Source: a virus (taxonomy: Duplodnaviria; Heunggongvirae; Uroviricota; Caudoviricetes). Taken from it: DNA of 32,182 nt. The translations under genes and the position numbers were made by a program. Below, one piece after another: positions 3,109 to 27,415 of the stretch; positions within the stretch are counted from its first letter, which is position 1; each line of letters starts with the position of its first letter. The stretch lies in IMG/VR virus record IMGVR_UViG_2870464427_000001; one strand, 5' to 3'. The notes under the pieces were generated by a model. The model was not told the origin of the DNA, searched no databases, and was given only the letters and a program-made list of their open reading frames with translations.

Positions 3109-3489
3109 TTACTTAACGAGGAATAAAAATGGTTTATTGTTCGGCGGTGTAATCGGGGCTGGCTCGCTTTTGCTCATGCGATCAGTGTACCAAGCCAACT
3201 CCTTGTCAAAGTAAGCCTGATTAAAATAGGCCATGAATGTAGTTTCAAATCCATAACGACCGCTAATACGCAGCATCTGATTGCCGTTCTCTGTTTCCAG
3301 ATATACCTGGGCACGTTCCTGATTCTCCTTCAGCCAGGTTAAAGCCTCATCGCATGAGGACACACGATACTCATCATCGTAGCCGTCATCGATGCGGCTT
3401 GAGGAAGAACGGCAAATCACGCCAACAGAACCAGCCAGGATAGTTTGAATTTTAAGGAAAGCGTTTTTGCGGATTTTAATCATGCTCAT
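3109..3489 (-). CDS. hypothetical protein
   Basis: 126-aa ORF with GGAG RBS 8 nt upstream of the ATG at 3489. No motif recognised. Confidence 0.55.
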   Translation of the reverse strand: MSMIKIRKNAFLKIQTILAGSVGVICRSSSSRIDDGYDDEYRVSSCDEALTWLKENQERAQVYLETENGNQMLRISGRYGFETTFMAYFNQAYFDKELAWYTDRMSKSEPAPITPPNNKPFLFLVK

Positions 3490-3756
3490 CGGGTTATCTC
3501 CGGTTTAACCAGGGCGGGTATCGCTCGGTTTCGGGTATAACCTTAGGAAATTTTTTCCCGCCTGTAAAGCACTTTTTATATAAATCTATAATTATATAAA
3601 TAATAGTAACTGGTGTTTTTTTAGGCGAAGCATTAAACATTTTTGTTTAGCTTATTGGCAAGGTCTTGAAAAAGACATTTCAGCAATGCTATACCATTGA
3701 ACATGGTATCGGCTGAATTTTGTAATTAACACATTTTAAACAATTTGAGGTGCCAA

Positions 3757-4041
3757 ATGGCTAAACAAAAATCTGAAATTGATGCTATTCGAGCATTAAC
3801 AGAAGTAACAATTAAAGGTTTTGAGCAGGTTGCTCAGGCATTAGTTGATATGAGAGAAGCTCAGGGAAAAGTCGTACGAGCAACATATAATGGATTAACC
3901 TCCTCAGGAAAATCTCGCTATGTTGCATCGCTAGTAGAGGAAGTAGGATCACAAGCTGAAGTAAGCCGCATGTTAAATATCACACCAGGGCGCGTTAGCC
4001 AGCTTATGAAGTCCGAAAAAAACCGCAAAAATGGAAAGTAA
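3757..4041 (+). CDS. small putative DNA-binding protein (C-terminal helix-turn-helix)
   Basis: 94 aa from the ATG at 3757 (GAGG RBS 6 nt upstream); C-terminal segment GSQAEVSRMLNITPGRVSQLMK looks like an HTH. Divergent from the 3109..3489 gene across an AT-rich promoter region. Confidence 0.55.
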   Translation: MAKQKSEIDAIRALTEVTIKGFEQVAQALVDMREAQGKVVRATYNGLTSSGKSRYVASLVEEVGSQAEVSRMLNITPGRVSQLMKSEKNRKNGK

Positions 4042-4045
4042 ATAA

Positions 4046-4068
4046 GTAAGGCCCCAATGGGGCCTTAC
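4046..4068. terminator. hairpin between convergent genes (bidirectional terminator candidate)
   Basis: gtaaggcccc (4046-4055) pairs with ggggccttac (4059-4068). Confidence 0.45.
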
Positions 4069-4074
4069 ATTATG

Positions 4075-4374
4075 TTAGACATGGAACGCTACTCGCTTTC
4101 CTGTAGGAAGCTCAACATCCAGGCTTAATTTGCCTCCCATAGCTTCAACGTAACGCTTTAATGTCGCCAGCTTTAAATCATTTCCGCGCTGCTCCAGCTT
4201 TGTTACTGCTGGCTGGCTTATACCCATCGCCTCAGCAACCTGTTTTTGTGATAACTGGAGTTCTTCACGCATCATCTGCAAGCCGACCTCAAGAATCATC
4301 TCATCTGCCATTTCTTTAATTCGCGCCTGGCTTTCAGGTGAACGGCTGGCAATCACCTCATCTAATGTTCTCAT
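4075..4374 (-). CDS. higA: HigA-like antitoxin (XRE-family HTH)
   Basis: 99 aa with HTH LSQKQVAEAMGISQPAVTKLEQ; start overlaps the upstream toxin stop (TAATG at 4372-4376). Confidence 0.75.
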   Translation of the reverse strand: MRTLDEVIASRSPESQARIKEMADEMILEVGLQMMREELQLSQKQVAEAMGISQPAVTKLEQRGNDLKLATLKRYVEAMGGKLSLDVELPTGKRVAFHV

Positions 4375-4727
4375 TACTTGCTCTCCAGTGTGTTCAGATG
4401 TGCTGCAAACTCATCCTCAGCTATACGCACCAGTTTTTCATAAAACCGTTTATCGTTACTTTTGTCTCCTGCACAAAGAACGATGGCCCGGCGAATCGGA
4501 TCGAACGCATAAAAGGCTCTTATCGGACGGCCAGAAAACTGAACGCGAAGCTCTTTCATATTTTTGTACCGAGAACCTTTTACGGTATCGGCATATGGCC
4601 TGGGTAACTCAGGTCCGTAAACCTGTAGCTTTTTCAAATCAGCCAAAACCTTTTCCTGAAGAGCGTCTTCTTGCTCATTTAGCCAGTCGTCAAATCGCTG
4701 GCTAAAAAGTACCGTCCACATGCTCAA
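4374..4727 (-). CDS. higB: HigB-like toxin (RelE/ParE superfamily, Gp49-like)
   Basis: 117 aa; toxin-first gene order and translational coupling typical of HigBA; sequence (RFDDWL .. KELRVQFSGRPIRAFYAFDPIRRAIVLCAGDKSNDKRFYEKLVRIAEDEF) matches the family as recalled. Confidence 0.75.
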   Translation of the reverse strand: MSMWTVLFSQRFDDWLNEQEDALQEKVLADLKKLQVYGPELPRPYADTVKGSRYKNMKELRVQFSGRPIRAFYAFDPIRRAIVLCAGDKSNDKRFYEKLVRIAEDEFAAHLNTLESK

Positions 4728-4740
4728 TCCTATAACCTGT

Positions 4741-4785
4741 AGTTTATATCACTAACTATATAACCTGTGAGTTATAATTTCAAGA
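4741..4785. promoter_or_regulatory. tandem operator-like repeats upstream of higB
   Basis: Two copies of tataacctgt(a/g)gtt(t)ata at 4741-4758 and 4768-4785; the second contains the palindrome ATAAC-N6-GTTAT. Confidence 0.4.
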
Positions 4786-4964: not shown

Positions 4965-5255
4965 CTATTTTTGTGACTTTACTCCTGGCATATGGACTTC
5001 CCAGCGACGAATCCCCATAGCTGCGCAAAAATCAGCCACATAATTCAATCCCGCCCATTCGCGGATACCACCACGGGCTTTTTCAATGAAAACGGCAATC
5101 CCTTTTTTATTGAGAGCAAAAAGCCGCCAGCTTTTTGTCACTTCGTCCTGGGTAGCCACAACACAAGTGAAAGCTCCCATGCGATACAGGTCCAAGAACT
5201 CTTTGCGTGTTTTGCGTACAAGTTCCATAACAAACCTCATATTTGCATGTTTCAA
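4965..5255 (-). CDS. hypothetical protein (second gene of a two-gene module)
   Basis: 96-aa ORF whose start overlaps the upstream gene by ATGA (5252-5255). No motif recognised. Confidence 0.45.
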   Translation of the reverse strand: MKHANMRFVMELVRKTRKEFLDLYRMGAFTCVVATQDEVTKSWRLFALNKKGIAVFIEKARGGIREWAGLNYVADFCAAMGIRRWEVHMPGVKSQK

Positions 5256-5551
5256 ACATCTGTTTTGTTATCAATGAAGATTAACCCTAACCCAGCGAAG
5301 TAACACAGCAGCGCCCAGGCTGCATACGGAATGCTGGATCTGGATGTGGACTCCTTTAACATCTGCCAGTTGCGAACATTGCGACTATCTTTTAAGCCTA
5401 GTTTTTTGGCCAACTGCGAGCCGCTCATTCCAGTCAGGCCAATGACTGCCCGAACTTCTCCACATGTAGGAGATTCCCATTCATCCGCTTTTTTTAAACA
5501 AGCCGGATTCAACATTTTTAAAACAGTATCTTTATCCATAACCATCTCCAT
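5252..5551 (-). CDS. putative HTH DNA-binding protein with C-terminal hydrophobic segment
   Basis: 99-aa ORF; HTH-like VIGLTGMSGSQLAKKLGLKDSRNVRNWQ followed by a hydrophobic stretch IPYAAWALLCYFAGLGLIFI. Confidence 0.5.
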   Translation of the reverse strand: MEMVMDKDTVLKMLNPACLKKADEWESPTCGEVRAVIGLTGMSGSQLAKKLGLKDSRNVRNWQMLKESTSRSSIPYAAWALLCYFAGLGLIFIDNKTDV

Positions 5552-5785
5552 TTATTATATCTACGATGGTAGGAAATCTTTTCCTATGTGGCAATAGAAA
5601 TTTACTACATTGCGTATAAGACAAGTTTTCTATGTCTAATAGGAAATGATGTTTCTTACGTTTTATCGCGTTCTGATGGCTACTGTGTGCGTATTTATCG
5701 ACGTTTATTGATAAGGCTCGCCCCTTCCTCCTGCAAAGCCCGGCCGTAGGCCTTATTTCGGCCTTATATAAATTGATTTTGTATA

Positions 5786-5897
5786 GTTCGAAACGTGCCG
5801 TTTCGAAAAGGATGATCAGGCTGCTCCATGCCTCCGGCAAGTGCCGGAGGAGGTATATTTGAGCGTAGCGACTCGAACCGGCGCGAGCTTTAGCTCG
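5786..5897. other. cluster of three perfect short hairpins in an intergenic region
   Basis: ttcgaaacg-tgc-cgtttcgaa (about 5788-5808), cctccggca-ag-tgccggagg (5830-5849), gcgagc-ttta-gctcgc (5882-5897). The only ORF here (5532..5903) is low-complexity and rejected. Confidence 0.3.
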
Positions 5898-5929
5898 CTG
5901 CAAGGGCGAACATATTCACAGGCAAAGCC

Positions 5930-6130
5930 TGCGTAAGTTAAATAAAGAAAGTCTTAATAAAAGAAAGTGATTTTGCATTTATTTGTTTAGTGCATCTATT
6001 ATAAAAAACCATTTGCATATACATATCAAAACTGTGGATAACTTTATTAGCCGATGCCTGTGAAGGCGATATTTTTGCTGTGTTCAGGTTTAGAGAAAAT
6101 TAATTTAGATTGTTTTTTGAACAGATATTT
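5930..6130. other. origin-like AT-rich region downstream of repA (oriR candidate)
   Basis: About 200 bp of strongly AT-rich sequence starting roughly 50 bp after the repA stop, no ORF. The position matches IncFII oriR, which lies downstream of repA1. Confidence 0.5.
6033..6041 (-). promoter_or_regulatory. DnaA box (perfect TTATCCACA on minus strand)
   Basis: Plus strand tgtggataa at 6033-6041 is the reverse complement of the consensus DnaA box TTATCCACA, inside the AT-rich region. Confidence 0.5.
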
Positions 6131-6182
6131 TATTGCGACGTAGATAATCCTCCGGTAAAACCGGATTCATCATTCAGGTGGG

Positions 6183-7031
6183 TTAATGTTGGAGTGATTT
6201 CCAGGTCTTTCTTAACCTGTTATAACGCTGCTCAACGAGGGATCGTAAATATGCAAGGTCAGCACCAGGATACATGCCATCAGCAAATTCCTGGCTAACC
6301 TCTCTAGTGATTTGATGACGAAGTTCGGCCTCTCCCTTTTCCTGAACAAGACGCGCAGCTCTCTCCGCTGCTTTCTGTTTTGCCTTTATCTCTCTGGCTG
6401 TCTTCCTCTGACGCCATACATTCTCCATCTGCTCCTGAATAACAATACGCTTATAATCAGCCTCCGTTATCGCTTTTTTAAGCCGTTCGCTATTCTTCGC
6501 ATTGAAGTAATTAAGTTTCTGGCTAACCGCACGTCTCCATGCTTGTTCAGTAATACCAACGGTTTCCAGCAGTTGATCACGAATCTCTATTTTCGCTGGC
6601 CAATACTGTTTATTCACCCGATCCCAGCGACGTTCATAATCAATAAAACCTAACGCTTTCAGTTGCGACAACGCCCTTGTACAGCGTGTTATAGACTTGT
6701 TCCCAGCTTCGGATACGGTAGACAGGCCGCAAAAATCAGCCAACGCCTCAGCACTGGCCAGAACCCGCTTAGAAATGATGTTTACATGGTGCAAAATCGC
6801 AGCAATCACAGCATTAATCGCCCGACGACGATGCTCGTTTATCCGGCGCTTCCGCTCTGACGGCTGATTAACGTAGAACGCAACCTCACACGTAAGATCA
6901 CGACCATTAATGCGCTGTAAAGCATCAGATAACACTAGCGGCAGCTTGTGCGTATGGTGCTTTGGAGGCTGGAACTCCGGCGACAAATTACAAACGTAAG
7001 CGGAACGTAGAGACGGCATTGGTCTATCCAT
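6183..7031 (-). CDS. repA: IncFII-family replication initiator RepA (RepA1-like)
   Basis: 283 aa from the ATG at 7031. Segment RRRAINAVIAAILHHVNIISKRVLASAEALADFCGLSTVSEAGNKSITRCTRALSQLKALGFIDYE aligns with R100/R1 RepA1 as recalled. The in-frame upstream extension to 7163 runs through leader stem-loops and is rejected as the start. Confidence 0.8.
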   Translation of the reverse strand: MDRPMPSLRSAYVCNLSPEFQPPKHHTHKLPLVLSDALQRINGRDLTCEVAFYVNQPSERKRRINEHRRRAINAVIAAILHHVNIISKRVLASAEALADFCGLSTVSEAGNKSITRCTRALSQLKALGFIDYERRWDRVNKQYWPAKIEIRDQLLETVGITEQAWRRAVSQKLNYFNAKNSERLKKAITEADYKRIVIQEQMENVWRQRKTAREIKAKQKAAERAARLVQEKGEAELRHQITREVSQEFADGMYPGADLAYLRSLVEQRYNRLRKTWKSLQH

Positions 7032-7046
7032 ATGTTCGCTCTTGCG

Positions 7047-7117
7047 TCCACGGAAAACCAACGTATAATGGGAGTTGTCGAGGCGCCCATGGATTGTTGT
7101 TGTTGGTTTTCCGTGGA
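7047..7117. promoter_or_regulatory. 16-bp perfect inverted repeat in the repA leader, 15 nt upstream of the repA start
   Basis: tccacggaaaaccaac (7047-7062) and gttggttttccgtgga (7102-7117) with a 39-nt spacer; could sequester the repA RBS region. Confidence 0.45.
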
Positions 7118-7158
7118 TGTCGCAAGAAGCCCGCAGATTTATCTGCGGGCTTTTTGTT
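7076..7158 (+). ncRNA. candidate CopA-like antisense RNA opposite the repA leader
   Basis: Plus-strand promoter-like -35 TTGCGT (7043-7048) and -10 TATAAT (7064-7069), then about 80 nt ending in a terminator (gcccgcaga / tctgcgggc stem 7128-7149 plus T-run 7150-7158). Size and position resemble CopA of IncFII replicons. Boundaries are inferred. Confidence 0.35.
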
Positions 7159-7344
7159 TCCATATCTGGTCAGTTTCCAACCAGACACCCACAATCATAA
7201 CCACGTTACGTGGTTTTAAGAGAACTCTACCACAACACTTTCGGTCATGCACGAAGTCTCTCACTGATCGAACGATAATCCACCAGTAAAAGGATCTAAA
7301 TTGGATCTCGTTTTGCGAGCATCATACTACTGGCCTAACTCCAG

Positions 7345-7899
7345 TCAATGATTCCCAGCCGGAAACCTGCGGTAAAGCGTGGATAAGGTAACATCGAAGA
7401 TAATCGCTATCCGCTTACGTGAAACACCATTCGCAATAAGTCTTCCGATCTGTTCCCATTGCTCTGGTGCCAGCTTTGAGCGGCGTCCTCCTATCCTGCC
7501 GTTAGCCCTTGCCACCGCCAATCCTGCACGCGTTCTTTCAAGCATATTTTCCCGCTCCATCTCTGCGACTGCACTCAGCATCGTGTAGGCAAAGCGGCCA
7601 ATTGAAGTGCTAATTTTTATCCCTTCCGTAATCGAAATAAACTCAATGTTGTTTGATAAAAAATAGTTAAGAAAATCAACAAGATGAATCAGGGAACGCC
7701 CCATTCGGTCCAGCTTCCAGACAATAACCGTATCGCCCGGCCGTAACACCTTAAGTAGCTTATCAAGTCCTGGTCGTTTTGATTTAGCACCGGATATTTT
7801 ATCTTCAAAAATCCGGTCACATCCTAAACTCCTGAGCGCCTCCAGTTGTAATTCCAAATTCTGGTCAAAAGTTGACACCCTCGCATAACCATATTGCAT
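7345..7899 (-). CDS. serine-recombinase DNA invertase (Gin/Cin/Pin/Hin family)
   Basis: 184 aa; YARVSTFDQ catalytic-serine motif, VWKLDRMGRS, GRIGGRR, C-terminal HTH; aligns closely with Mu Gin as recalled. Confidence 0.9.
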   Translation of the reverse strand: MQYGYARVSTFDQNLELQLEALRSLGCDRIFEDKISGAKSKRPGLDKLLKVLRPGDTVIVWKLDRMGRSLIHLVDFLNYFLSNNIEFISITEGIKISTSIGRFAYTMLSAVAEMERENMLERTRAGLAVARANGRIGGRRSKLAPEQWEQIGRLIANGVSRKRIAIIFDVTLSTLYRRFPAGNH

Positions 7900-7963
7900 A
7901 CTTTCTAAACCGCGATTGTTGCTAAAAGCGGGAAAAAATATCGTTCAGACGACACAGAGGCAA

Positions 7964-7989
7964 TTCGCAAAAACCTCGGTTTGCAGGAA
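7964..7989 (+). other. gix/cix-like inversion crossover site (left)
   Basis: ttcgcaaaaacctcggtttgcaggaa resembles the gix consensus TTATCCAAAACCTCGGTTTACAGGAA. A 25-bp stretch (7973-7997) is identical to the reverse complement of 10902-10926. Confidence 0.7.
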
Positions 7990-8877
7990 ACGGTAAACAA
8001 GGCTGGTAACGCCGTTCAGCGTTCCGGTGATAAAATGACCGGAGAACTGAAAATTGGCACGGTGAATGCGCTGCGAATTTTCAATGATGCCTTCGGTCTT
8101 ATTTTCCGTCGTTCAGAAGATTTTCTTCATTTCATTCCGACGGCTGAAGGACAAGGCGAAAACGGTGATATCGGCCCATTAAGGCCATTCGCTATAAATC
8201 TGAGAACAGGTGCTATATCTGTCAGCCACGGGGCCAAAATTGAAGGAGGTCTAGCTATTGGAGCTACTGATAACGCACTGGGTGAAAACTCCATTGTTCT
8301 GGGAGATAACGACACCGGATTTAGGCAAGATGGAGATGGTATTATTAGCTTCTATTCAAATGGTTCGCGCATCGGACATATTGATGAGTTAGGATTACAT
8401 ATTTATAAAGATATTGAATCTAATGGCAGCAATTTTAGATTAAAAGGTAATTACCGCCACCACATTACATTCGCCAACGAAGACGGAAGTATTCGTATGT
8501 TTTTGTGGAAAGATAAAGATGGTGATGGTGTTCATATTAATAATGGTTCAAGCGGTGGCGGTGATTTCGTTTTTAAAACAGATGGGGGATTTGCGCTGGG
8601 AAGTGGTGCGCAAGTTGCGTCTAATGGCGATATTTATGGTTCAGTGTGGGAAAACAACTGGTTAAGCACATGGCTGCATAATCATGTCGTTCGGGATATT
8701 CGTCTTGGCAGCATTGAATATAAAAACGTATGGCGCGACTCCGGCTTTGGCGATGCGTCAGGTTATGTTTTAACAGCCGCAATTAACAGCAATGCGGATG
8801 ATATTGTCGACACTGTTGCCAGAAGGCCAATTCAGAAATTGATTGGGGGAATATGGTATAACGTGGGGAGTGTTTAA
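7981..8877 (+). CDS. alternative tail-fibre C-terminal cassette (silent in this orientation; no own start)
   Basis: 298-aa ORF opening exactly at the crossover site (QETVNKAG..). Its C-terminus ([18 protein letters not shown]) parallels the active fibre C-terminus (ARPIQYCINGTWYNAGSI). Confidence 0.65.
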
Positions 8878-8878
8878 G

Positions 8879-9406
8879 ATGATGCACCTGAAAAATATTA
8901 AGGCCGGGAATCCGAAAACACCGGAACAATACCAGCTAACTAAAAAAGCGGGCGTGGTATGGCTCTTTTGTGAAGATGGCAAAAACTGGTATGAGGAACA
9001 AAAGAATTTTCAGCCAGACACCATAAAAATTGCTTACGATGAGAACAACATCATCGTTGCTGTCAGTAAAGACGTTTCAACTATTAATCCTGAAGGGCTA
9101 AGCATAGTTGAAGTTCCTGATATTACGGCAAATCGTCGCGCAGACAATAACGGAAAATGGATGTTTCTGGATGGTAAAGTAGTAAAGAGGGAATATACAG
9201 AACAGGAACTGCAACAACAGGCCGAATCACAAAAGGCCGCATTGCTTTCCGAAGCTGAATCAGTCATCCAGCCGCTGGAACGCGCTGTCAGGCTGAATAT
9301 GGCAACAGACGAGGAACGCACACGACTGGAAGCATGGGAACGCTACAGTGTTCTGGTCAGCCGTGTGGATACGGCAAATCCTGAATGGCCACAAAAGCCT
9401 GAATAA
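8879..9406 (+). CDS. tail-fibre assembly protein (alternative, U'-like)
   Basis: ATG at 8879 directly after the cassette stop (8875-8877); [14 protein letters not shown].. is paralogous to the 9435..9968 product. Confidence 0.75.
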
Positions 9407-9411
9407 AAATT

Positions 9412-9431
9412 AAGGCCCGATATCGGGCCTT
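9412..9431. terminator. perfect hairpin between the convergent tail-fibre assembly genes
   Basis: aaggcccg-atat-cgggcctt at the centre of the invertible segment. Confidence 0.45.
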
Positions 9432-9434
9432 CTC

Positions 9435-9968
9435 TCATTCTGGTTGTTCGGGAAACGTTACTGGCAGGCTGGAAGTGTCTGTAGATTCGACTTTCTGCGC
9501 AAAGAGCATCCACTCTGTTAATTTTTGTTTATTCTCGTCGGAAATGATGCCCAGCCGTAGCTGTGAGTCCCATAGCAGGGTTTTATCCCTGACAAGTTGC
9601 AACAGGCTTTGCTTTTCATTCTCTGCCTGCTGCCTCTGTTCCTCCTCGGTATAAGTTCGCTTTATCACTACGCCATCTTTGAACATCCATTTACCCGAAA
9701 TATCAGCCCGGCGATTTGCTGTAATATCAGGAACCTCAACGACGCTTGCGCCTTCTGGATTAATTGCTGAAACATCCTTTTCAATACAAATAATAACGCC
9801 GTTGTGGTCATAGACCATTTTCAACGTATCAGTCTGGAAATTCTTTTGTTCCTCATACCAGTTTTTTCCATCCTCTGAATAAAGCCATTTGATGTTAAAT
9901 TGTTTCGTTAGCTGGTACTGCTCCACTGTTTTAGGATTACCAGCGGTAATGTTTTTTAAGTGCATCAT
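9435..9968 (-). CDS. tail-fibre assembly protein (U/G-like)
   Basis: 177 aa, MMHLKNITAGNPKT..; immediately downstream of the tail-fibre gene. Confidence 0.8.
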   Translation of the reverse strand: MMHLKNITAGNPKTVEQYQLTKQFNIKWLYSEDGKNWYEEQKNFQTDTLKMVYDHNGVIICIEKDVSAINPEGASVVEVPDITANRRADISGKWMFKDGVVIKRTYTEEEQRQQAENEKQSLLQLVRDKTLLWDSQLRLGIISDENKQKLTEWMLFAQKVESTDTSSLPVTFPEQPE

Positions 9969-15375: not shown

Positions 15376-16377
15376 TTAATACCCATTAATTACTCTTCGG
15401 ACATCAATCGAGGTGGTATAACCACTAGCCCCAATTGAATGCACAGCTTTCGATATAAGATATTTTCCAGAAAATGAACCGAATCCGTCCAGATTTATAG
15501 TTACACCAGCTACCAATCTGGTGTCTCCAACCAATACTAAAGATCCTGTATTTTGATATCTATTTTTAAGCCGCAAAGCAGCCTTTGCCTTACGTTTTGC
15601 TTCATCTAAATTAGCTACCAGTTTTCTTATCTTAAGATTCGACCCTTCTTCTACGGATGGATCTACCCAAGTATACGAAAGCGACTTTCTTTTTTTAGGT
15701 ACGCGATATTTGCACGTGCAACTTTTATACAAATCTGTAGATTGTGTGCTAAAGCTATATCTGATTATCTCATCAATACCTAACGTAAGCGTAGCGATAG
15801 GATCTTTTTGCTCAAACATCTCTTGAGCAAATATTATTAATTGGCTATCAGTGACCTTTAACGACAACCCTTCATCCTGGCAAAGTCGATGGAGAAATTT
15901 TAAATCGCTTTCCTCCATTTGATCTTCGCGCGCATAATATGGATTACTATCACCATCAATAAGAAACAACAGTTCAAGGTTAGCTAATTTAGCTATAGAA
16001 GTTGCTATATCTTTAAGAGTTGTTTTTTCCCATGCATTACTTTTTAAATCACGTCTAATGCCTGATGAAACAGGAACAGAAACAGCAGTCACCTCAACAA
16101 CAGAAGGTGGTCCAGAGCAAGTTATGCCATCTACCTGGAATTTCCCGCACTCAAGGACGATTTGATTTATAGGCTTAAAGCTCAAATCAATAAAATCACC
16201 CTTTTTAGGTGTCCAGTCTCCAGACCATTTCCCATCATCATTTTTTAATATAATAGAAATATCATCGACCTGACCATCTTCATTATCTGTATAAGACATT
16301 GACAAAACATCAGGTGACATATGAGCGGTAATATTTACATTCTGATATATAACATCAAAAAGCGTTTTACGTAACAC
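15376..16377 (-). CDS. tail protein D-like (baseplate hub / late control gene D family)
   Basis: 333-aa ORF after the tape measure and X-like genes; assignment by size, position and general resemblance. Confidence 0.6.
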   Translation of the reverse strand: MLRKTLFDVIYQNVNITAHMSPDVLSMSYTDNEDGQVDDISIILKNDDGKWSGDWTPKKGDFIDLSFKPINQIVLECGKFQVDGITCSGPPSVVEVTAVSVPVSSGIRRDLKSNAWEKTTLKDIATSIAKLANLELLFLIDGDSNPYYAREDQMEESDLKFLHRLCQDEGLSLKVTDSQLIIFAQEMFEQKDPIATLTLGIDEIIRYSFSTQSTDLYKSCTCKYRVPKKRKSLSYTWVDPSVEEGSNLKIRKLVANLDEAKRKAKAALRLKNRYQNTGSLVLVGDTRLVAGVTINLDGFGSFSGKYLISKAVHSIGASGYTTSIDVRRVINGY

Positions 16378-25872: not shown

Positions 25873-27415
25873 TTACCTCAGAAACAGGAGGATTAATAAG
25901 CCCCAACTCACGGCGAGCATTCTCTTCTCTGCCACAAATTTGTGCGGTTTCTTCCCAGTTAAGACCTGACATTTCAGCCGCTTCCTTTTCACGGGTAGAG
26001 AATGTTTCCTCAACACGCAGTTTTGCAGCTTTGACTTCTTTAAGGGGATCTAATTGGCCTTGTGATGGGCCATACCATTGAGCGCCACTCCATGCAGCGC
26101 GATATTCAGGCCCATAAAAAAAACCAGGGGCAATAACACGACCTTTAGCCACGGCTTCGGCCAACCATTCCTCATAGATCGGTTGGCAAAATGACTGAAC
26201 CATCCAGTCACGTCGCATACGGAACATTTTCCAGGCTTCAAGTAATGCGGCCCTGCTTGCGCTATAACTTGCTGTAAAATGCTTTACCAAGAGTTCGTAA
26301 GGGAGTTCTAAAGCAGCCCCAATTTGACGGCATATGGCGACAACAAAACCATCAAATGCCGTATTTGGTCGCCCGGGATTTGCTGTATCTATCGACTCAC
26401 CTTCACCCAAACTTACTATGGAGCCATTCCCCATTTCTTGGGTGTTATCATCATGGTTATCGATCTGCTCGTACTGAGGGATACCCGATTCACCGACTGG
26501 TCCATCAGGAGCCTCTGTTTTAATAAAGACAGTAAACATCCCTGACACAACCGCAGCAACCAATTCAGCATCGGTGTATCGTCCTAACTGCTTCAATGCT
26601 TCAATTACAGGAGCAAGGACAGGAACGCCACGGCGTTGCCCAGGCCTTTCAAAATCCTGCATGACATGCAGAATATTTCTTCTTCCTGTTTTACTCCCAT
26701 ATGCGGGAATACGTTCCCACTTGCGGGTTACAAAACCAGAAGTCCCGGCTGGGTGATGTTTTGCAACCCAGTACGCCACAGGCTCGCTAAATTCACCAAC
26801 CTCTACGCCACCGTAAAGATTTGGTATAAAACGATCCTCTGGATTGCAAACACGATCACCTTCAATTAAATAGACGCACAAATCATATATAACACCCTTA
26901 CGCTTAATAACTGGTAGCGCAGCAAATATATCGCCAGATGTTAACGCAGATATTTGGACCAATGATTGCAATTGTCCAAAAGTACACATTCTTGATGCAT
27001 CACAATTTGGAGAATCAGCCCATAATCTAAACTCACGCTCAACATGCTTTTCCCATGCTCGCGCTTCTTCCTGCGTCATCCCCAAGAAATCGGCATCAAT
27101 GTTCGCATTTAGTTTTAAACCGGAACCAACAACGTTTGTCCTGATAGTTTTTATTGCGCCAACCGATAGCGGGTTTCCCATGAAGAGATCACGAGAACGC
27201 TCACGCAATTTATCTATATTTTTAACAATATCATCATCAGGAGAACCAGCTTTACTAAACCAACCCCTTAATGATTTTTTATGAGTGCTTGCACCATGAC
27301 GTGAATATCCAAGGTTATTAATACCTTCAAGTGCCTCTAACCGTTTTCTTGCCAAAGCTCGATTTAATGCCCTCTGAGGTGAAAACGGCGCAATAACTCG
27401 ATCAAGAATATTCAT
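25841..27415 (-). CDS. portal protein (lambda B family)
   Basis: 524 aa, between the gpW-like and protease genes; size and position as for lambda gpB. Confidence 0.85.
   Translation of the reverse strand: MNILDRVIAPFSPQRALNRALARKRLEALEGINNLGYSRHGASTHKKSLRGWFSKAGSPDDDIVKNIDKLRERSRDLFMGNPLSVGAIKTIRTNVVGSGLKLNANIDADFLGMTQEEARAWEKHVEREFRLWADSPNCDASRMCTFGQLQSLVQISALTSGDIFAALPVIKRKGVIYDLCVYLIEGDRVCNPEDRFIPNLYGGVEVGEFSEPVAYWVAKHHPAGTSGFVTRKWERIPAYGSKTGRRNILHVMQDFERPGQRRGVPVLAPVIEALKQLGRYTDAELVAAVVSGMFTVFIKTEAPDGPVGESGIPQYEQIDNHDDNTQEMGNGSIVSLGEGESIDTANPGRPNTAFDGFVVAICRQIGAALELPYELLVKHFTASYSASRAALLEAWKMFRMRRDWMVQSFCQPIYEEWLAEAVAKGRVIAPGFFYGPEYRAAWSGAQWYGPSQGQLDPLKEVKAAKLRVEETFSTREKEAAEMSGLNWEETAQICGREENARRELGLINPPVSEVNEQNMETDDA

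Follow-up and report, generated by a model that had tools for sequence, protein, structure and literature searches.

A KorC-family repressor homologue and its candidate operator in a two-gene operon beside the replication origin of an Escherichia coli phage-plasmid

Results

Two co-directional genes lie between the replication origin and higBA

Positions 4965-5551 of a 32,182-nucleotide stretch of viral DNA (Caudoviricetes; IMG/VR record IMGVR_UViG_2870464427_000001; hereafter, the window) carry two small open reading frames (ORFs), herein designated ORF-A and ORF-B. The window is part of an approximately 48-kb Escherichia coli phage-plasmid. The 1.1-kb region round the ORF pair was 99.8% identical both to a plasmid of 48.5 kb from E. 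coli ATCC 25922 and to dozens of comparable 46-51-kb, non-mobilizable E. coli plasmids; three Yersinia phages (vB_YpM group, deposited as phage genomes) were 99% identical to the ORF-pair region. Given that the annotated relatives encode terminase, portal, capsid, tail, and lysis proteins together with an IncFII-type RepA and ParA, the element is regarded as a phage-plasmid. Membership in the pSLy3 group was also checked; pSLy3 belongs to the SSU5 supergroup, and the name was therefore not applied to this element.

In agreement with the original prediction, which was made from the sequence alone, two genuine ORFs in the same direction were found in this interval, both on the minus strand, with longest forms at 5252-5551 and 4965-5255 (Table 1). 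Translation of ORF-A most likely starts at 5539, where a GGAG sequence is situated 6 nt upstream and where PGAP and PHROG agree. The junction between the two genes, however, was found to differ from the ATGA overlap and the 96-aa second protein that had been proposed. The ORF-A stop codon TGA occupies 5254-5252 and the longest downstream ORF opens with TTG at 5255, such that the overlapping letters read TTGA, and this TTG is not a conserved start. Rather, the ATG at 5228 is used by PGAP and by all intact homologues, and it is from residue 10 onwards that the long form is matched by the PHROG 4595 profile. From the conserved ATG it follows that ORF-B is a protein of 87 aa whose gene begins 23 nt after ORF-A. 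The ribosome-site element of ORF-B, GGAGGTTTGTTT, is kept in the Serratia relative and in the relative at the metagenomic locus L010. A hairpin spanning the ORF-A stop and the ORF-B start (5227-5271) was considered as a coupling device and rejected (-13.2 kcal/mol, z score -0.4, with shuffled sequences folding equally well). The proposal that the pair is co-transcribed, with the gene for a helix-turn-helix (HTH) regulator first, was accepted as correct.

Table 1. Coordinates of the features discussed in the text (window positions).
Feature	Position	Strand	Remarks
ORF-A	5252-5539	minus	95 aa; longest ORF, to 5551, 99 aa; identical to WP_000356589.1 ('hypothetical protein')
ORF-B	4965-5228	minus	87 aa; identical to WP_000424604.1; PHROG 4595
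ORF-B Shine-Dalgarno sequence GAGG	5235-5238	minus	6 nt before ATG (GAGG-TTTGTT); read from sequence
-35 element TTGCCA	5589-5594	minus	Consensus scan; TTGC invariant in alignment of four diverged relatives
Candidate KorC-type operator	5570-5586		Perfect 17-bp palindrome TAGGAAATCTTTTCCTA (TAGGA-N7-TCCTA); by sequence
-10 element TACCAT	5566-5571	minus	Consensus scan
Second operator promoter	3540-3568	minus	-35 TTTACA, 3563-3568; -10 TAAGGT, 3540-3545
Candidate degenerate KorC-type operator	3544-3560		Minus-strand letters CGGGAAAAAATTTCCTA; by sequence
HigB	4374-4727		Just downstream of the pair; Gp49 family, E = 6e-23
HigA	4075-4374		Downstream of the pair, beyond HigB
IncFII RepA	6183-7163		Upstream of the pair; E = 1e-43
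Origin region	5552-6182		Between repA and ORF-A; conserved blocks in four diverged relatives
DnaA box	6033-6041	minus	Exact, TTATCCACA; in origin region

ORF-A is a homologue of the KorC repressors

Judged from its sequence, ORF-A is a previously unannotated homologue of the KorC family of plasmid repressors. When compared with KorC of IncP-1 plasmids (WP_010890115.1) by BLASTP, ORF-A was 52% identical over 77 aa (E = 5e-23). Moreover, in a tblastn search of plasmids, in which 3,927 records were matched, the best matches beyond the phage-plasmid family were IncP genes annotated as korC or KorC. The C-termini of the two proteins are nearly alike (IPYAAWALLCYFAGLGLIF in ORF-A and IPYAAWALLCDYAGLGLIW in IncP-1 KorC).

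The XRE-like HTH that had been noticed in ORF-A was confirmed by structure prediction. The AlphaFold2 (AF2) model, with a mean predicted local distance difference test (pLDDT) score of 83.6, consists of an XRE-type helical domain with helices at residues 26-36, 40-46, 53-60, and 72-81, and a Foldseek search with this model retrieved AcrIF24 (template modelling score 0.70), Aca1, HipB, Aca2, and the controller (C-) proteins of restriction-modification systems. In a search of PDB sequences, ORF-A matched the C-terminal HTH domain of AcrIF24 (E = 1.5e-5, 31-33% identity) and Aca3 (E = 0.017). The nearest solved relatives (the AcrIF24 HTH domain, Aca1, and Aca2) are autorepressors that bind inverted repeats. 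ORF-A can thus no longer be called uncharacterised in kind, inasmuch as it is a clear homologue of the experimentally studied KorC and is accompanied by a candidate KorC-type operator (see below).

Scans of ORF-A against Pfam, NCBIfam, and PADLOC yielded nothing significant. Genuine IncP-1 KorC matched no Pfam or NCBIfam model either, which explains why ORF-A is labelled 'hypothetical'. When both proteins were scanned against the libraries (Pfam, NCBIfam, PADLOC, and PHROGs), the sole results were PHROG families without an assigned function and a weak match to mob_myst_A. Confident homology of both proteins to characterised regulators would have counted against the original prediction; such homology was found for ORF-A and not for ORF-B.

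The hydrophobic C-terminus of ORF-A is a KorC feature

A hydrophobic C-terminal segment, as noted originally, is indeed present in ORF-A: the 19-residue Kyte-Doolittle mean reached 1.77 at residues 71-89, which exceeds the classical threshold of 1.6. This value would favour a membrane-anchored regulator whose C-terminal segment spans the bilayer. In the AF2 model, however, the globular HTH domain ends in a helix made up of residues 72-81, which can be aligned with the corresponding part of the solved AcrIF24 sequence, whereas residues 82-89 are non-helical and of lower confidence (mean pLDDT of 72 for the block 81-90). The approximately eight hydrophobic residues that follow the last helix are too few to cross a bilayer. 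Moreover, the motif IPYAAWALLCxxAGLGLI is invariant among ORF-A homologues and also occurs in IncP-1 KorC, an operator-binding repressor according to the papers cited below. A membrane anchor is thus scarcely credible, and the segment, which had been called possibly membrane-associated and unusual for a simple repressor, is instead the conserved KorC C-terminus and in part the last HTH helix. The AGLGLIF tail is a hallmark of the family, and our guess is that it serves as a dimer or partner interface.

A candidate KorC-type operator occupies the spacer of the ORF-A promoter

Upstream of ORF-A, a sigma-70-like promoter for ORF-A/ORF-B was recognized on the minus strand (TTGCCA, 17 nt, TACCAT; 5594-5566). 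Its 17-nt spacer is occupied by the palindrome TAGGAAATCTTTTCCTA, which reaches two bases into the -10 element and is the only exact TAGGA-N7-TCCTA in the window. Near the ORF-A start, only the TTGC and TAGGA...TCCTA blocks were conserved across four diverged lineages; upstream of the Serratia, L010, and Salmonella homologues of ORF-A, the half-sites and TTGC were kept while the central 7 nt varied.

The same type of motif was found on KorC-encoding plasmids. In IncP-1, TAGGACATTTTGTCCTA lies upstream of klcA and kleA, the promoters of which are repressed by KorC (PMC12365149, PMC7314908). In the orf24-korC promoter of pOXA-48, TAGGACAAAATGTCCTA is situated between TTTACA and the -10 element, exactly where the KorC site of this plasmid was published (PMC12365149), and in pHNFP671 this type of motif was present at three sites. 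Among 98 loci compared, the exact motif was found in none of the approximately 70 lambdoid loci, and was confined to the phage-plasmid loci (all but six) and the KorC-plasmid loci. A second palindrome, TAGGAAAtgatgTTTCTTA (5640-5658), was rejected as an operator; its 19-bp spacing is wrong and it is not conserved in the relatives.

Further candidate operators define a proposed regulon

The motif was also counted in three complete relatives, with 100 shuffles of each plasmid as a control. The ATCC 25922 plasmid contained four sites with at most one mismatch (0.81 expected), a Salmonella Weltevreden plasmid contained four perfect sites (0.73 expected), and the Serratia plasmid pJSRIV006_2 contained four perfect sites plus a one-mismatch match within the portal gene (0.66 expected), which we take as a chance occurrence. 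For each plasmid, the observed count was reached in 0 of 100 shuffles. The four counted sites per plasmid are intergenic and lie about 30-80 nt 5' of co-oriented genes. In the ATCC 25922 plasmid, they head ORF-A, a 124-aa ORF, a DUF3560 operon, and an operon that follows a gene for an MT-A70 methyltransferase; the sites of the Salmonella plasmid are at the same four positions.

At least three phage-plasmid promoters other than that of ORF-A thus appear to carry the operator, one within the window (preceding 3109-3489) and two beyond it. The second promoter in the window (Table 1) is located 55 nt upstream of a 126-aa ORF (3109-3489). At the orthologous site, the ATCC 25922 plasmid has TGGGACAATATTTCCTA and the Salmonella relative has the perfect TAGGAAAATATTTCCTA. 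Because candidate operators are present at further promoters, ORF-A would be a kor-type repressor of a small regulon rather than a partner of ORF-B alone.

Three of the E. coli sites reside in a near-identical promoter/5' untranslated region cassette of approximately 120 bp, whose core, aaagtgcTTTACAgg-operator, resembles aaagtgcTTGACAggt-operator at IncP-1 klcAp. Copies of the cassette were located at 3484-3610 in the window and at about 16206-16330, 25900-26015, and 32530-32645 in the ATCC 25922 plasmid (L096). In each copy, the KorC-type operator is accompanied by the leader ccgaaaccgagcgatacccgccctggttaaaccGGAG, which is conserved, and, 5' of the -35 element, by the AT-rich palindrome TATAATTATA; by analogy with the KorA site at IncP-1 klcAp, this palindrome could be a second operator. 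As for the genes under these promoters, one KorC-type operator of the Serratia plasmid lies at the head of an operon with a Lar restriction-alleviation gene among its members, and in the E. coli plasmid another operator is followed, a few genes further downstream, by a ParB_N-methyltransferase gene.

All named sources of the small ORF-B family are Enterobacterales

No recognisable motif had been noted in the second protein, and this held when databases were searched: ORF-B had no relative in Pfam, NCBIfam, or PADLOC, and no match among PDB sequences with either a single sequence or a 14-sequence profile as query. The AF2 model of ORF-B (pLDDT of 88) has the order beta-alpha-beta-beta-beta-alpha-beta, and its fold matches, an eL38-like fold among them, were uninformative. 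The protein is basic (isoelectric point of 9.9), and its conserved residues form a (K/A)ARGGxREW(S/A)GL loop and a C-terminal WEVH. In a search of 1.84 billion representative proteins, 27 matches were obtained, some of which were frameshifted or fused fragments. The family comprises 183 clusters at 90% identity, all labelled hypothetical or 'bacteriophage protein', and every source that was named belongs to the Enterobacterales. Our best guess is that ORF-B has an early, host- or nucleic-acid-directed accessory function.

In three proteins (P0047, P0051, and P0052), the C-terminal approximately 30 residues of the ORF-B family (REWSGL..FC..CGISLWE(V/I)HNK) appear to be fused to unrelated N-termini, that of P0047 resembling one of the genes that recur upstream of ORF-B in prophages. 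Such fusions probably arose by deletion as the prophages decayed.

The two genes are separable in both directions

The distribution of the two genes proved to be the most informative line of evidence. In the E. coli, Serratia, and L010 relatives, repA and the origin are followed immediately by ORF-A and then ORF-B; the pair itself is also present at locus L032. ORF-B without ORF-A was found, with variable neighbours, at approximately 70 loci of lambdoid prophages as well as in phages of Klebsiella and Salmonella, and at the one locus read in detail (L033) it is situated in the nin region. Conversely, repA, the origin, higBA, and ORF-A together with its operator are all present in the Salmonella-type relatives and in homologues from Enterobacter and Klebsiella aerogenes, from which ORF-B is absent as a clean indel of approximately 290 bp. 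Each gene therefore occurs without the other.

These findings bear on two alternative explanations. The first is that the locus is a type II toxin-antitoxin or addiction module, with ORF-A as an HTH antitoxin and ORF-B as a toxin, by which the plasmid would be stabilised. Like XRE/HTH modules such as HigBA and HipBA, the locus combines a small HTH gene, placed first, with a small partner and a promoter that looks autoregulated; its place beside the origin and HigBA is typical of such modules; and Kor-controlled genes were historically termed 'kil' since they are host-lethal if derepressed (PMC12365149). Nonetheless, this reading is disfavoured and we regard it as very improbable, because ORF-B homologues lack an ORF-A-like gene at the lambdoid loci and ORF-A persists without ORF-B in the Salmonella-type relatives, candidate ORF-A operators are present at three other promoters, the genes are separated by 23 nt rather than overlapping, and ORF-B matches no toxin family (Pfam, PADLOC, and PDB). 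The toxin-antitoxin or stability coupling implied in the original prediction is contradicted by the separate occurrence of the two genes.

The second alternative is that ORF-B is a partner of the repressor or of the IncFII origin (co-repressor, anti-repressor, or replication or copy-number factor), comparable with KfrC of RA3. The order repA-origin-ORF-A-ORF-B is kept in E. coli, Serratia, and two metagenomic relatives, the basic ORF-B with its eL38-like fold is compatible with nucleic-acid binding, and the nin region that harbours lambdoid ORF-B follows the replication genes by our own reading. However, relatives with the same repA, origin, and ORF-A have no ORF-B, ORF-B occurs with unrelated replicons, and it is unlike KfrC or known replication factors. 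We consider such a partnership improbable.

Neighbouring features of the phage-plasmid

As had been proposed, the pair adjoins both a HigBA module and the replication origin: the HigB and HigA genes lie downstream, the IncFII RepA gene upstream, and a DnaA box and conserved blocks in between (Table 1). In the origin region, the motif ATGCAAA(T/A) also recurs, and a block rich in GC, GTCCGCCCTTGCAGCGAGCT...GCGCCGGTTCG, is present. Directly 5' of higB, an 18-bp element occurs twice (TATAACCTGTAGTTTATA and TATAACCTGTGAGTTATA, at 4731-4748 and 4759-4776), and the copies overlap a predicted promoter (4783-4755, minus strand). The two copies are probably the autoregulatory operators of HigBA, in which case higBA would be controlled separately from ORF-A/ORF-B.

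The interval from HigA to the next minus-strand gene (about 3561-4074) measures 585 nt in the window, whereas the corresponding gap of the ATCC 25922 plasmid is 169 nt long and that of Yersinia phage vB_YpM_41 is 163 nt long. The additional approximately 416 bp include a plus-strand 98-aa ORF (3745-4041) with weak matches to Sigma70_r4 and the YdaS HTH, and a GC-rich inverted repeat, GGCCCCAATGGGGCC, at about 4051-4065.

Elsewhere in the window, two Rfam matches scored above the gathering score, namely isrK (68 bits; 398-471) and C4 antisense RNA (70.8 bits; 496-584), both on the plus strand and just 5' of a 380-aa ORF (822-1964; ORF6N-domain protein in the ATCC 25922 record). We take this locus to resemble the immI-type antisense-RNA/antirepressor immunity module of P1 and P7. 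Within 7345-9968, a serine recombinase gene (7345-7899; hin DNA-invertase in the phage record) lies beside oppositely oriented tail-fibre and tail-fibre-assembly genes, an arrangement that points to an invertible segment for host range, of the kind known from Cin/Gin/Hin systems.

The Serratia plasmid pJSRIV006_2 and the ATCC 25922 plasmid have in common a backbone of repA-origin-ORF-A-ORF-B, ParA, Ref, and DUF1064 together with KorC-type operators, whereas their tail modules differ (lambda-like minor tail proteins versus contractile-tail baseplate genes, respectively). Structural genes thus appear to have been swapped as modules round a common regulatory and plasmid core.

Discussion

The combined observations are best explained, in our opinion with good probability, by ORF-A being a KorC-type autorepressor of a small regulon and ORF-B an optional cargo gene in its operon. 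According to this model, a dimer of ORF-A would bind TAGGA-N7-TCCTA in the spacer of its own promoter and thereby would block RNA polymerase, giving rise to an autoregulated bicistronic ORF-A/ORF-B transcript, and the other promoters with candidate operators would be controlled likewise. Upon entry of the element into a repressor-free cell, these operons would be expected to fire in a burst and then be held low during plasmid maintenance, a step that presumes negative feedback like that of KorC and the Aca proteins. ORF-B, located between ORF-A and the higBA intergenic region, would be a dispensable accessory gene that acts independently of ORF-A. A precedent is provided by RP4, wherein KorC represses klcA, kleA, and kleC (PMC12365149, PMC7414963, PMC7314908), and wherein induction of the KorC-controlled antirestriction gene klcA amounts to 120-220-fold in new transconjugants (PMC7314908).

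The kil-kor regulon of the IncP-1 plasmids RK2 and RP4 is similar to the proposed system in several respects. KorC and ORF-A are comparable in size (85 and 95 aa, respectively), and each has a single XRE-type HTH and nearly the same C-terminal motif; the 17-bp TAGGA-N7-TCCTA is situated between -35 and -10, several operators are found per replicon, and the promoter flanks aaagtgcTT(G/T)ACAgg are alike. On the other hand, the IncP element is a conjugative plasmid whereas ours is a phage-plasmid with an IncFII-type RepA; korC is the last gene of klcA-klcB-korC, whereas ORF-A is first and directly behind its own operator; the klc and kle genes are unrelated to the genes controlled in the phage-plasmid; and KorC has KorA and KorB as partners, whereas none were seen here for ORF-A. 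With regard to gene order, IncU plasmid RA3 offers a closer parallel, as korC is first in a bicistronic korC-kfrC operon and KorC acts as a global regulator of several modules (PMC7414963). Similarly, IncL plasmid pOXA-48 has a single KorC site between the -35 and -10 elements of its korC operon promoter (PMC12365149), but its KorC is only approximately 34% identical to ORF-A, and KfrC of RA3 and the JAB-domain orf24 product of pOXA-48 are both unrelated to ORF-B.

Several points weigh against this model. The operators were called from their sequences. The second operator in the window is degenerate, with CGGGA in place of TAGGA as the distal half-site, and regulation there may be weak. The remaining two sites lie beyond the window and are known from near-identical complete plasmids. 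Finally, the conserved, non-helical AGLGLIF tail of ORF-A finds no explanation in the model other than the interface guessed at above.

A related explanation is that the locus constitutes an anti-defence operon of the acr-aca type, in which ORF-A would be an Aca-like autorepressor and ORF-B a new effector (anti-CRISPR, anti-restriction, or another inhibitor) produced in the early burst. The HTH and the inverted repeat in the ORF-A promoter appear, from sequence and model, to resemble those of Aca-type autorepressors (AcrIF24 C-terminal HTH, Aca1, and Aca3), of which the Aca-type HTH domain of AcrIF24, Aca3, and Aca1 are the nearest solved relatives of ORF-A. The induction of antirestriction klcA upon entry of RP4 lends this idea further weight, as do the Lar gene in a Serratia operon headed by the operator and the nature of ORF-B as a small and mobile accessory gene of phages, the neighbours of which vary from locus to locus. 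However, the isoelectric point of ORF-B is unlike that of DNA-mimic inhibitors, and ORF-B was dissimilar to every solved Acr or antirestriction protein in PDB sequence and fold searches. No co-occurrence of ORF-B with a particular defence system was observed. Having the HTH gene first is atypical of acr-aca operons. In Aca systems, a dimeric HTH protein acts on an inverted repeat in the operon promoter, such that the accessory gene is expressed early and then shut off (PMC9638941, PMC9001735); this control concerns one promoter, as opposed to apparently four for ORF-A, and, unlike AcrIF24, ORF-A has no Acr domain and ORF-B is no known Acr. An anti-defence role is thus possible but unlikely; it refines the model of a KorC-type autorepressor with optional cargo and does not contradict it.

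Taken further, the KorC-type repressor might serve as an establishment switch over a four-promoter entry/anti-defence regulon that is released in a burst after infection, with ORF-B founding a new family of effectors. In this joint proposal, the ORF-B proteins would be small basic anti-defence or host-takeover effectors distributed over phage-plasmids and lambdoid nin regions. Both parts of the proposal are speculative, and at present we hold them to be doubtful.

In our literature searches, nothing was found on the two protein accessions and the Yersinia phages, and no paper linking kil-kor control to phage-plasmids was encountered. Relatives of KorC are already known to be widespread on plasmids; what is new is ORF-A as a KorC member in a phage-plasmid with a conserved candidate regulon of four promoters. 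That genuine KorC escapes the Pfam and NCBIfam models means that its relatives stay unannotated. Through the comparisons made herein, two 'hypothetical proteins' that recur in dozens of phage-plasmids from E. coli, Salmonella, Serratia, and Yersinia become a testable regulatory circuit, in which a repressor of the KorC type is combined with a defined operator of 17 bp and with four promoters as its candidate targets. In practical terms the interest is moderate: such elements are often met with in clinical E. coli, and the KorC homologue of pOXA-48 is required for maintenance of that plasmid (PMC12365149). ORF-B and the other operator-controlled operons provide a short list of candidate entry and anti-defence genes. 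More broadly, these data suggest that the kil-kor type of control described for broad-host-range conjugative plasmids also operates in phage-plasmids.

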